From the IMG/VR virus record IMGVR_UViG_2534682096_000007: 26,892 nucleotides of DNA. One strand, given 5' to 3'. A program made the position numbers and the translations under genes. Origin of the DNA: a virus (lineage: Duplodnaviria > Heunggongvirae > Uroviricota > Caudoviricetes). The notes under the pieces are model-generated. The model had not been told where the DNA came from and did no database searches. It was given only the letters and a program-made list of their open reading frames with translations. Position 1 is the first letter of the stretch; each line of letters starts with the position of its first letter. This document shows positions 14,864 through 25,328 of the stretch, piece after piece.

Positions 14864-15607
14864 ATGACCACACCAAATCCACTGGCAAAAACGAAAGGTG
14901 CGGGAACGACGTTCTGGATGTACACCGGCAAGGGCGATGCGTTTGCGAACCCTTTATCGGACACTGACTGGCTGCGTCTTGCGATGGTGAAGGATCTGCA
15001 ACCTGGCGAAATGACCGCTGATGCAGAAGATGACACTTATCTCGATGATGAAGATGCAGACTGGAAAACGACAACCCAGGGGCAGAAATCCGTCGGTGAT
15101 ACTTCGGCGACGCTGGCCTGGCGTCCGGGTGACAGCGGGCAGAAAAAACTGGTTCAGTTGTTCGACTCCGGTGAAGTCTGCGCGTTTCGTATCAAATATC
15201 CCAACGGCACTGTTGATGTTTTCCGTGGCTGGCTGAGCTCACTGGGTAAAACCATTGCCTCAAAAGACGTGATGACCCGCACAGTGAAAATCAGCGGTGT
15301 GGGGCGTCCGTATCTGGCAGAGGAAGGCACTGAAACAGTGAGCGTTACCGGGCTGACGGTGGCACCGGCATCTGCCAGTGTAAAAGTGGGAGCAACCACC
15401 ACGCTGACCTTTACAGTAAAACCTGACGGAGCCAGTGACAAAGCGATCAGTGTGCATTCGACAGATCCACAGACTGCCACGGTGACCCTGAACGGGCTTG
15501 TGGCCACGGTGAAAGGCGTGAAGCAGGGCAGTGTCAGCATTGTGGGCATGACTTCTGACGGCGATTTTGTGGCAGTGGCTGCGGTGGCTGTCAGCGCCGC
15601 AGGTTAA
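14864..15607 (+). CDS. V: major tail protein V (with C-terminal Ig-like domain)
   Basis: 247 aa from ATG 14864 (RBS AAGGAGG 14852-14858). ...KGAGTT.W.Y.G.GD..ANPLSD.DW.RLA.VKDL.PGE.TA...DD.YLDDEDADW... closely matches lambda gpV as recalled. Confidence 0.92.
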   Translation: MTTPNPLAKTKGAGTTFWMYTGKGDAFANPLSDTDWLRLAMVKDLQPGEMTADAEDDTYLDDEDADWKTTTQGQKSVGDTSATLAWRPGDSGQKKLVQLFDSGEVCAFRIKYPNGTVDVFRGWLSSLGKTIASKDVMTRTVKISGVGRPYLAEEGTETVSVTGLTVAPASASVKVGATTTLTFTVKPDGASDKAISVHSTDPQTATVTLNGLVATVKGVKQGSVSIVGMTSDGDFVAVAAVAVSAAG

Positions 15608-15627: not shown

Positions 15628-15651
15628 GCCCCGGTTATCCGGGGCTTTTTT
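15628..15651 (+). terminator. intrinsic-terminator-like hairpin between V and G
   Basis: Perfect 7-bp stem GCCCCGG (15628-15634) / CCGGGGC (15639-15645), loop TTAT, then TTTTTT. Confidence 0.6.
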
Positions 15652-15667
15652 GCAGGTGGAGAACATG

Positions 15668-16054
15668 ATGTTTCTGAAACAGGGCACGTTTAATTATGAA
15701 AAGCAGTCCGTGGTGCTCAGTGAGCTGTCCGGGCTGCAGAGAATTGAATATCTGGCGTTTGTTCAGCAGCGAACGGCAAAGTTTGATGCCGAAGAGGGAG
15801 AACTGCCGGAGGCTGAACGACAGATTGCTTTTCTGCGGATGGGGATGGATATCAATGCCTGGCTGGTTTCCCGCTCACTGTGGAATGCGGAACAGTCTCA
15901 GGATGTTGAGACGCTTTGCGCATCCGTTATTACAACATGGTCGTATGATGCCCTGGGAGCGGGGGCGGAGATGGTTCTGTCGCTGAGCGGTATGGGAGTC
16001 ATTGAGAATGCCGGGGATTTGGAGCATGAGGTGCTGACGCCGGAAAAGTCCTGA
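15668..16054 (+). CDS. G: tail assembly chaperone G
   Basis: 128 aa from ATG 15668 (MFLKQGTFNYEK...SVVLSELSGLQRIEYLAF...), matching the lambda gpG N-terminus MFLKTESFEHNGVTVTLSELSALQRIEHLA as recalled. RBS GGTGGAG 15655-15661. The track start at 15626 lies inside the terminator hairpin and is rejected. Confidence 0.88.
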   Translation: MFLKQGTFNYEKQSVVLSELSGLQRIEYLAFVQQRTAKFDAEEGELPEAERQIAFLRMGMDINAWLVSRSLWNAEQSQDVETLCASVITTWSYDALGAGAEMVLSLSGMGVIENAGDLEHEVLTPEKS

Positions 16055-16392
16055 CGCGGGAAATGCAGTTTGTCATGCGGCTTGCCCGGGAGTTCCGGCG
16101 GGCAGACTGGCGGCGGATGCTGTCGGAAATGTCGGCCACTGAGCTTGGTGAGTGGGGCGATTATTTCCGGATGCAGAGCTTCAGTGATGTGTGGATGGAT
16201 GCGCAGTTTGCCTCGCTGAAGGCATTGATCGTGAGAATGGTGTCCGGTAGCAGTGATGCTGCGGTGGCTGATTTCAGCCTTTTACCGGAAGAGAACGGGA
16301 TACCGGAGCGAACGGACGAAGAACTGATGCATCTTGGGGAAGGTATTTCCGGAGGTGTGCGTTATGGACCAGATAGCCAACTTGGTCATTGA
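15668..16392 (+). CDS. T: tail assembly chaperone GT, predicted product of a programmed -1 ribosomal frameshift from G into the T frame
   Basis: The T reading frame (stop at 16390-16392) is the -1 frame relative to G and is open from 16030, overlapping the last 8 codons of G. A slippery-like heptamer G_GAA_AAG lies at 16042-16048 (lambda uses G_GGA_AAG). There is no credible independent start/RBS for T; ATG 16063 is internal. Confidence 0.6.
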
Positions 16393-19300
16393 TTTGGGGA
16401 TTGATGCGGCAGAGTTTAAAAATGAAATTCCCCGTATCAAAAACCTTCTGAATGGTGCAGCCAGCGATGCAGAACGGTCTTCTGCCCGTATGCAGCGTTT
16501 TATGGAGCGTCAGACTCAGGCCGCCCGGCAGACAATGCAGGCGGCTTCTTCGGCTGCAACAGCCGCATCCGTCCATGCGCAGACGGTGGAGAAGAGCGCA
16601 CAGGCTCATGAACGCATGGCCCGCGAGGTGGAGCAAACCCGCCAGCGTATGGAGGCACTGAGCCAGAAAATGCGCGAGGAACAGGCGCAGGCCATGGCTC
16701 TGGCGGAGGCTCAGGATAAAGCGGCTGCCGCGTTTTATCGTCAGATTGACAGTGTGAAACAGGCCAGTGCGGGGCTGCAGGAATTACAGCGTATTCAGCA
16801 GCAGATCCGACAGGCCAGAAACAGTGGCGGGATTGGTCAGCAGGATTATCTGGCGCTGATTTCTGAGGTTACGGCGAAAACCCGTGTTCTTACGCAGGCT
16901 GAGGAAGAGGCTACCCGACAGAAAGTGGCGTTTATCCGTCAGCTTAAAGAGCAGGCAACCCGCCAGAATCTTTCTTCTTCTGAGTTGCTTCGTGCTAAGG
17001 CTGCCCAGCTGGGGGTAAGCAGTGCTGCAGAAGTGTATATCCGCAAAATGGAGCAGGCAGGAAAAGCCACGCATTCGCTGGGTCTGAAAAGTGCAGCGGC
17101 CCGCCAGGAGATTGGCGTTCTGATAGGTGAACTGGCCCGCGGCAATTTAGGGGCGCTGAGGGGATCCGGGATAACGCTGGCTAACCGTGCCGGATGGATA
17201 GACACTCTGATGTCACCGAAAGGCATGATGCTTGGCGGGGTTATTGGCGGTATTGCCGCGTCCGTCTATGGTCTGGGTAAAGCCTGGTATGACGGTCAGA
17301 AGGAGGGGGAAGAATTTAACCGCCAGTTGTCGCTGACGGGGCATTATGCCGGAGTCACTGCCGGGCAGCTGTGGACGCTCAGTCGTGCTATTTCCGGGAA
17401 TGGTATCACGCAACATGCTGCAGCCGGTGCGCTGGCTCAGGTGGTGGGGAGTGGTGCATTTCGTGGAAACGATATCGGTATGGTGGCGAGAGCTGCCGCA
17501 CAGATGGAGCGATCGGTTGGCCAGTCGGTCAGCGATACCATAAATCAGTTTAAGCGGCTGAAGGATGATCCTGTAAATGCCGCGAAGGCTCTGGACAATG
17601 AGCTGCATTTTCTTACTGCCACTCAGCTTGAGCAGATACGTGTCCTTGGGGATCAGGGACGGTCCAGTGATGCTGCACGGATAGCCATGTCTGCACTGGC
17701 AGAGGAAACCGGTCGGCGTACTGCGGATATTGATAATAACCTCAATGCGCTTGGCAGTACGCTGAAGTATCTGTCTGATTTGTGGAGTCGTTTCTGGGAT
17801 GCGGCCATGAATATTGGTCGTGAAGACTCGCTGGATGAACAGATTGCCGCTTTACAGGAGAAAGTGTCGCGGGCGAAAAGACTCCCCTGGACGGCATCAT
17901 CTTCTCAGGTTGAATACGATCAGCAGCGTCTTAACGATCTTCAGGAGAAAAAACGCCAGAAGGATTTGCAGGATGCAAAAGAGCAGGCAGAGCGGAATTA
18001 TCAGGAGCAACAGAAACGACGTAATGCTGAAAATGCTGCACTGAACCGGATGAATGAAACGGAAGCAGCACGACATCAGCGTGAAATTGCGCGTATTAAT
18101 TCCATGCAGTACGCCGATCAGGCTGTCAGGGATGCAGCGATACAACGTGAAAATGAACGTTACGAGAAAGCCCTGGCATCCGGTAAGAAAAAAACACGCG
18201 AAACCCGTAATGATGAGGCCACCCGGTTATTGCTGCAGTACAGTCAGCAACAGGCACAGGTGGAAGGACAGATTGCTGCTGCAAGACAGTCAGCAGGCAT
18301 TGCCACTGAAAAGATGACAGAAGCGCATAAACAGCTTCTGGCTCTGCAGCAGCGCATCAGCGATCTGGACGGGAAAAAACTGACGGCAGATGAAAAGAGT
18401 GTGCTGGCCCGTAAAGATGAACTGATTCAGGCACTGACGCTGCTGGATGTAAAACAGCAGGAGCTTCAGAAACAGACGGCACTCAACGATCTGAAGAAAA
18501 AAACAATTCAGCTGACCAGTCAACTGGCTGAAGAAGAGCGCGCTCAGCGTCAGCAACATGACCTGGATATCGCCACGGTGGGTATGGGTGATCAGCAGCG
18601 GCAGCGATATCAGGTACAACTGAGTCTTCGCCAGAAATACCAGCAACAGCTGGAGCAGTTGAGGCGGGATAGTGAGCAGAAAGGGACATATAACACGGAT
18701 GACTACAGAAAGGCCGAGCAGGCGCTGACGGAGAGCCTGAACCGACAACTGAATGAGAATCGCCGTTACTGGCAACAGCTTGAAGTTGTGCAGGGTAACT
18801 GGAAAAACGGAGTCCTGCGTGCATTTCAGGATTTTACCGTGGATGCAGATAATACGGCAGGAACAGCAGAACAGGTGTTCTCGTCAGCCTTCAGCAACAT
18901 GGGAAATGGCCTGGCAACTTTTGTCACTACCGGCAAACTCAATTTCAAATCCTTCACCTCTTCTGTGCTGTCAGATATGGCGAAAATCCTGGCGCAGGCA
19001 ACCATGATGAAATCGATAAAAGGGATTGGCAGTGTACTGGGATTTGATCTCAGCAGCCTTTCCCTGAATGCCAATGGGGGGATTTATCAGTCTGCTGATT
19101 TGAGTCGTTACAGTGGCACGGTGGTTAACCGTCCGACGTTTTTTGCTTTTGCAAAAGGCGCGGGTGTGATGGGTGAAGCGGGACCTGAAGCCATTCTGCC
19201 TCTGCGTCGTGGTGCTGACGGTAAGCTGGGGGTTGTGGCGGATATTGGTGGTTCAGGTATGGCGATGTTTGCCCCGCAGTACAACATCGAGATCAATAAC

Positions 19301-19429
19301 GATGGCACGAACGGGCAGATAGGTCCGGCTGCCCTGAAGGTGGTTTATGACCTTGGGAAAAAAGCGGCAGCGGACTTTATGCAACAGCAGGCCCGTGATG
19401 GTGGTCGGTTAAGTGGAGCATATCGGTAA
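16364..19429 (+). CDS. H: tail tape measure protein (gpH-like)
   Basis: 1021 aa from ATG 16364 (RBS GGAGG 16351-16355). Long, Ala/Gln/Arg-rich coiled-coil protein in the tape-measure position between G/T and M. Confidence 0.9.
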   Translation: MDQIANLVIDLGIDAAEFKNEIPRIKNLLNGAASDAERSSARMQRFMERQTQAARQTMQAASSAATAASVHAQTVEKSAQAHERMAREVEQTRQRMEALSQKMREEQAQAMALAEAQDKAAAAFYRQIDSVKQASAGLQELQRIQQQIRQARNSGGIGQQDYLALISEVTAKTRVLTQAEEEATRQKVAFIRQLKEQATRQNLSSSELLRAKAAQLGVSSAAEVYIRKMEQAGKATHSLGLKSAAARQEIGVLIGELARGNLGALRGSGITLANRAGWIDTLMSPKGMMLGGVIGGIAASVYGLGKAWYDGQKEGEEFNRQLSLTGHYAGVTAGQLWTLSRAISGNGITQHAAAGALAQVVGSGAFRGNDIGMVARAAAQMERSVGQSVSDTINQFKRLKDDPVNAAKALDNELHFLTATQLEQIRVLGDQGRSSDAARIAMSALAEETGRRTADIDNNLNALGSTLKYLSDLWSRFWDAAMNIGREDSLDEQIAALQEKVSRAKRLPWTASSSQVEYDQQRLNDLQEKKRQKDLQDAKEQAERNYQEQQKRRNAENAALNRMNETEAARHQREIARINSMQYADQAVRDAAIQRENERYEKALASGKKKTRETRNDEATRLLLQYSQQQAQVEGQIAAARQSAGIATEKMTEAHKQLLALQQRISDLDGKKLTADEKSVLARKDELIQALTLLDVKQQELQKQTALNDLKKKTIQLTSQLAEEERAQRQQHDLDIATVGMGDQQRQRYQVQLSLRQKYQQQLEQLRRDSEQKGTYNTDDYRKAEQALTESLNRQLNENRRYWQQLEVVQGNWKNGVLRAFQDFTVDADNTAGTAEQVFSSAFSNMGNGLATFVTTGKLNFKSFTSSVLSDMAKILAQATMMKSIKGIGSVLGFDLSSLSLNANGGIYQSADLSRYSGTVVNRPTFFAFAKGAGVMGEAGPEAILPLRRGADGKLGVVADIGGSGMAMFAPQYNIEINNDGTNGQIGPAALKVVYDLGKKAAADFMQQQARDGGRLSGAYR

Positions 19430-21844: not shown

Positions 21845-25328
<3,484 letters not shown>

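Follow-up and report, generated by a model that had tools for sequence, protein, structure and literature searches.

The window, a stretch of 26,892 nt, covers late genes of a lambdoid phage or prophage of E. coli. Between positions 15600 and 16450, it shares 97.5–99.5% identity with phages Ayreon, mEp460, cdtI, Tritos, HannyBb and others, and it matches a prophage of E. coli B7A at 100%. The same module is found in 1849 of 5426 complete E. coli genomes at 95–100% identity, i.e., in about one third of them. The tail genes are arranged in the order V-G-T-H (Table 1), with two overlapping ORFs between the major tail gene and the tape-measure gene as in lambda-like G/GT pairs. According to Pfam, the upstream ORF is a gpG homolog and the downstream frame encodes the T domain. 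The G start given in Table 1 is favored over an alternative ATG at 15665 based on the RefSeq start and the MFLK N-terminus of homologs. At the other end of the pair, the start of H overlaps the end of T by 29 nt.

Table 1. Coordinates of tail genes and sequence elements at the G/T locus of the window.
Feature	Coordinates	Strand	Basis or remark
Major tail tube protein V homolog	14864..15607	+	Pfam Phage_TTP_12 (6e-67) and Big_2; start according to the annotation of relatives (alternative start 14858)
Intrinsic terminator-like hairpin and T run between V and G	15628..15651	+	Marked as a terminator in the records of mEp460, Ayreon and N15
Gene G, tail assembly chaperone, 128 aa	15668..16054	+	Pfam PF06894 (Phage_TAC_2), 7e-40
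SD-like GAGGTG, putative 5' stimulator	16028..16033	+	Anti-SD duplex of -9.2 kcal/mol
Predicted shift site G_GAA_AAG	16042..16048	+	In the register of G; conserved in relatives
T part of GT, -1 frame from GTC at 16048	16048..16392	+	Pfam PF06223, 5e-15
In-frame ATG of the T frame	16063..16065	+	T start in public annotation
Tape measure protein H homolog	16364..19429	+	Pfam TMP_2, TMP_4 and Tape_meas_lam_C; strong SD GGAGGTG

Two features outside the G/T overlap deserve mention. The hairpin between V and G is strong (GCCCCGG-TTAT-CCGGGGC followed by T6); it resembles a terminator and may reduce transcription of G, T and H relative to V. Further downstream, the homolog of J (tail tip, host specificity; 21845–25328) is broken when compared with the intact J of phage vB_EcoS-640R1, with an in-frame TGA at 23492–23494 and a change of frame near 24350–24420. 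Either this copy of the prophage is defective or there may be sequence errors. Selection may thus no longer act on this particular prophage, its G/T site being intact nonetheless.

At its 3' end, G reads ACG CCG GAA AAG TCC TGA, with the stop codon at 16052–16054. The -1 frame contains a TGA at 16027–16029 and is open from 16030 to 16392. Checking the frames confirms what a preliminary description of this DNA had proposed, namely that the T frame is -1 relative to G, that it overlaps the last eight codons of G (seven sense codons plus the stop) and that G_GAA_AAG lies in register inside this overlap. Likewise, the homologous place in lambda is indeed occupied by G_GGA_AAG, and the K-V junction at which the frames would meet forms a single invariant column when lambda and Gifsy-2 are aligned with the window. 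The heptamer includes an A_AAG tetramer in register (16045–16048). It does not follow the canonical X_XXY_YYZ rule, since XXX is GGA, and the -1 P-site codon GGA would face the anticodon UUC with a G.U pair in the middle position. Throughout the window, GGAAAAG is found eight times where 4.3 copies are expected, so that the motif alone is not rarer than chance; the significance of the heptamer derives from its position, frame and conservation. Within the 25-nt overlap, it is the sole site of the A_AAG or X_XXY_YYZ-like type. Other shift sites in the overlap were thus discarded, as was transcriptional slippage, for which the A run comprises four bases only.

Comparison with relatives provides strong support for the interpretation. 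A scan of one genome per species yielded 69 loci, 66 with a recognizable G, which group into 28 clusters at 85% G identity (termed lineages here) and cover Escherichia, Salmonella, Kosakonia, Kluyvera, Enterobacter, Citrobacter, Phytobacter, Proteus, Xenorhabdus, Serratia, Erwinia and Edwardsiella, among other genera. When the G/T overlap is aligned across these lambdoid relatives, amino acid conservation in the T frame begins exactly at the heptamer (GK[VA]xxxExxF[VA]xxLAREFxRPDWR). 5' of the heptamer, the sequences read in the T frame are unrelated and interrupted by stops; 3' of it, the G frame is short and variable and terminates after 0, 1 or 5 codons. The heptamer itself is kept: positions 1, 2, 4, 5, 6 and 7 are invariant in 28/28 lineages, and at position 3, 24 lineages have A and four have G. 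Third-codon positions nearby carry only 0.06–0.16 bit, i.e., they are nearly random. Position 1 of the heptamer is such a third base, at the fourfold-degenerate site of CCG, GCG, CTG, ACG or GTG; the residue before the heptamer varies (P, A, L, T, V) and the G stays.

The designation of G_GAA_AAG as a variant slippery site, as it had been introduced, has to be reversed. It is the majority form (24 of the 28 lineages) and is already annotated in N15, phi80 and LLS, whereas lambda's G_GGA_AAG is the minority form. The four G_GGA_AAG lineages occupy three separate places in an unbootstrapped NJ tree of GT proteins, and the GGA and GAA forms appear, as judged from this tree, to interchange by a single transition.

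Denser sampling gives the same picture. In the window's own clade, the heptamer is unchanged in 83/83 loci, and it is likewise unchanged in all 120 contigs retrieved with its seven bases set to N. An independent IMG/VR sample of 79 loci comprises 70 GGAAAAG, 7 GGGAAAG, 1 GGGAAAA and 1 AGAAAAG. Plaque-forming or induced phages have the same shift site. In Gifsy-2, G is 55% identical to that of the window, yet an identical stretch of 18 nt (ACGCCGGAAAAGTCCTGA) is retained amid diverged flanks, and there is no ATG at the equivalent of 16063. As far as sequence comparison can tell, this pattern bears the mark of a frame switch right at the heptamer, and it is not explained by independent initiation of T. 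Homology and comparative signatures thus support the programmed -1 frameshift and the resulting G-T fusion postulated at the outset, because the T frame becomes conserved right from the heptamer, synonymous sites within the heptamer do not vary and the ATG is mostly absent.

Several public contigs call for separate comment. Shift-site variants occur in the IMG/VR contigs L321 (A_GAA_AAG, preceded by the codon GCA) and L287 (G_GGA_AAA) and may be tolerated, belong to defective copies or stem from sequencing errors. A set of short low-coverage contigs (L128-L138, L145-L147) carries a lambda-identical G/T in assemblies of Neobacillus, Oceanobacillus, Kitasatospora, Shewanella, Leeuwenhoekiella, Pseudomonas, Chromatium and others, most likely reflecting contamination of these assemblies with lambda DNA. 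Moreover, enterobacterial lambdoid G/T modules appear under MAGs named Bacillota, Proteobacteria and Geobacteraceae (L086, L092 and L121). L086 and L092 are nearly identical to the E. coli module of the window and L121 is of the Enterobacter/phi80 type; these are probably mis-binned contigs.

Taken together, we consider it very probable that a lambda-type -1 frameshift at G_GAA_AAG makes a G-T fusion, by the two-tRNA route and with the yield proposed in the following. A small fraction of the ribosomes translating G would slip back by one base at 16042–16048 and continue in the T frame, giving rise to a 241-aa GT protein, join(15668..16048, 16048..16392), with the sequence LTPEK-VLTREMQF around the junction and the predicted junction peptide HEVLTPEKVLTR. 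The remaining ribosomes would terminate at the G stop codon and release G. If the roles known from lambda apply, the tape-measure protein would be coated by G and by the G part of GT, and the tail tube protein would be recruited by the T part. Re-pairing of both tRNAs is most likely. In the A site, tRNA-Lys would move from AAG to the better-matched AAA, and in the P site, tRNA-Glu would shift from GAA to GGA, with pairs 1 and 3 preserved and the central G.U tolerated. Re-pairing in the P site is supported by the invariance of position 1. The single A_GAA_AAG contig indicates either that the rule of a G at position 1 is not absolute or that this copy is defective.

The yield probably does not exceed a few per cent. 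No tetramer is more shift-prone in E. coli than A_AAG, yet on its own it supports only about 0.15% frameshifting in vivo, rising to 5.6% with a strong pseudoknot (Sharma et al., 2014). For the single tRNA-Lys of E. coli, AAA is a better match than AAG. AUG GAA AAG served as a control "unfavorable for slippage" beside G GGA AAG in a reconstituted E. coli system and gave mainly 0-frame product, even with an SD at permissive spacing (Peng et al., 2019). Thermodynamic analysis of dnaX assigns +5.1 kJ/mol to a change from A.U to G.U at the first P-site position and -2.9 kJ/mol to a change from G.S to A.S, which is a partial offset; second-position changes lie outside its sample (Bock et al., 2019). 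A ratio of only about 1 GT to 30 G is needed in lambda, in which it is the fusion that functions, and hence a low yield could suffice. Among the papers covered by our search, which Xu 2004, Levin 1993, Licznar 2003 and Ravin 2000 fall outside, G_GAA_AAG is not described as a phage slip site and appears solely as the control of Peng et al. (2019).

Both sides of the heptamer were inspected for stimulatory elements. 3' of the site, the folds of 16049–16130 and 16000–16180 are not beyond those of shuffled sequences (z of -0.31 and -1.09, respectively), and the 60 nt after the heptamer give a mean z of -0.17 versus shuffles across the 28 lineages. A stem-loop or pseudoknot of the dnaX type is not found 5–9 nt 3' of the shift site, and Rfam returned chance-level matches only. 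A pairing of the form CGCC(A/G)G...CTGGCG, with a loop of about 22 nt and beginning about 4 nt after the heptamer (region of about 4–40 nt), recurs in other loci, e.g., L093, L099 and L104. It occurs in lineages with a G stop five codons downstream and overlaps conserved T codons; it is not significant versus shuffles and is absent from the window. 5' of the site, GAGGTG makes a six-base match to the 16S 3' end and, among the 8-mers of its own G gene, ranks in the top 0.9%. The GAGG core stops 10 nt 5' of the heptamer, and Gifsy-2 has a GAGG at equal spacing. This is the spacing in dnaX constructs, and the SD range for -1 shifts is 9–14 nt. The mean anti-SD affinity of the family peaks at the SD-like position, with a good match in only about 12 of the 28 lineages, and a conserved Glu codon occupies the same place. 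An SD-like element was therefore ruled out as a family-wide feature, being lineage-specific and confounded by this codon. GAGGTG is a candidate for a lineage-specific stimulator, which may help slippage in the clade of the window.

A different view of the slippage event is that only tRNA-Lys moves, either on the A_AAG tetramer or on a GAA_AAG hexamer sensu Licznar et al., while tRNA-Glu does not re-pair and the first G is irrelevant. Single-tRNA shifting at A_AAG is an established mechanism, of which IS1222 makes use at G_CGA_AAG, and the existence of one contig with A_GAA_AAG is in line with such a scheme. The tetramer model, however, does not predict that position 1 is G in 28/28 lineages and in 78 of 79 independent loci despite five different codons, and the free variation expected 5' of an NNA_AAG hexamer was not observed. 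We regard a shift by tRNA-Lys alone as rather unlikely.

Two further readings dispense with slippage at the heptamer. T might be made alone by re-initiation at ATG 16063, 8 nt downstream of the G stop, so that no fusion would be needed. The T frame had been described as lacking its own start and RBS; the former does not hold, since an in-frame ATG is present close to the G stop and serves as the start of a separate 109-aa T in GenBank and RefSeq, including mEp460, Tritos and cdtI, on at least 986 contigs. As to the latter, the ATG is preceded by a weak GGGAA, and its SD is weak (-4.0 kcal/mol) and mis-spaced, with the SD-like bases abutting the ATG, whereas G, H and L have normally spaced SDs of -7 to -13 kcal/mol. 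Just three lineages have a start codon where the window has ATG 16063 (ATG in two), and ten of the 28 have no ATG, GTG or TTG at all between the heptamer and LAREF. Moreover, GKVLTRE, located between the heptamer and ATG 16063, belongs to the conserved T-frame block. Initiation of T on its own would also leave the invariance of the heptamer unexplained, and in lambda it is the fusion that is functional. ATG 16063 is thus probably not the main route to T, although a free T is possible as a minor by-product; that T is made in this way alone appears very improbable to us. Alternatively, the site could be a decayed and non-functional lambda heptamer in a defective prophage, given that GGAAAAG and GGGAAAG differ by one transition and that J in the window has an in-frame stop and a frame change. 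The same heptamer is, however, present in viable phages, in the 24 lineages across genera, in the module copies of the 1849 E. coli genomes and in all of the contigs retrieved with the seven bases free, and decay is hardly credible as an explanation.

The frameshift favored here is of a known kind, and GGAAAAG has been annotated as a slip site before. For the mEp460/cdtI/Ayreon clade, none of the records examined contains a frameshift annotation, and the exact 241-aa GT fusion has no match in a collection of 15 billion proteins. A tail module that is very common among E. coli prophages is annotated as separate G and 109-aa T, and its likely product is GT. Beyond annotation, the conservation of G_GAA_AAG across the family, first base included, speaks for low-level shifting in vivo at a heptamer that departs from the X_XXY_YYZ rule, and it raises the question of what a middle-position G.U costs in the P site. 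About as likely as not, in our view, is the broader proposal that G_GAA_AAG is a genuine two-tRNA heptamer working via a second-position G.U and the preferred natural G/T site across Enterobacterales, with lambda's G_GGA_AAG as a derived minority. If so, a sequence used as a non-slippery control in mechanistic work would be strongly selected for its slipperiness, perhaps with SD-like elements of individual lineages as a means of tuning, and would provide a natural calibrator for the P2 mismatch penalty.

The closest reference is the -1 frameshift between G and G-T in lambda (Levin, Hendrix and Casjens 1993; Xu, Hendrix and Duda 2004, 2013, 2014, as cited in PMC5009743). Both loci share homologous G and T domains, the V-G-T-H order, the K-V junction, the A-site change from AAG to AAA and the lack of an evident 3' structure. 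In contrast to lambda, where the P-site codon is GGA (Gly), the window has GAA (Glu), whose re-pairing would need the central G.U. Furthermore, the G stop follows five codons after the site in lambda and one codon after it here, the window has an in-frame ATG after the G stop, and lambda has only GAGC upstream as opposed to the strong SD-like GAGGTG.

An identical GGAAAAG in the same register is found in N15 (gene 14/15), phi80 (G/G-T), LLS (genes 11/12) and Gifsy-2 (G+G'). The GenBank record of N15 labels it "slippery sequence for -1 translational frameshift," the phi80 record lists it as a slippery sequence together with a joined gpG-T CDS, the record of phage LLS names a "minus-one programmed translational frameshift site GGAAAAG," and the Gifsy-2 record labels T as part of a frameshift hybrid. 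This group differs from the window in that its G is only distantly related (about 37% identity for the phi80-like G-T of L113), that the preceding codon is GCG or GTG and that the G stop lies five codons downstream.

[quoted passage not shown] Unlike dnaX, it has no 3' stem-loop, it would require non-cognate re-pairing in the P site and its expected efficiency is a few per cent rather than about 50–80%. Finally, heptamers with an imperfect X_XX part are known from T7 gene 10 (G_GUU_UUC), IS3 (C_CAA_AAG) and EAV (G_UUA_AAC; PMC5009743), and PRFect includes a "twofour" motif class (PMC10885494). As in these heptamers, the A-site codon would re-pair perfectly and the P-site tRNA partly, GGAAAAG being a two-plus-four motif, whereas the mismatch of G_GAA_AAG is distinguished by being a G.U in the middle position.
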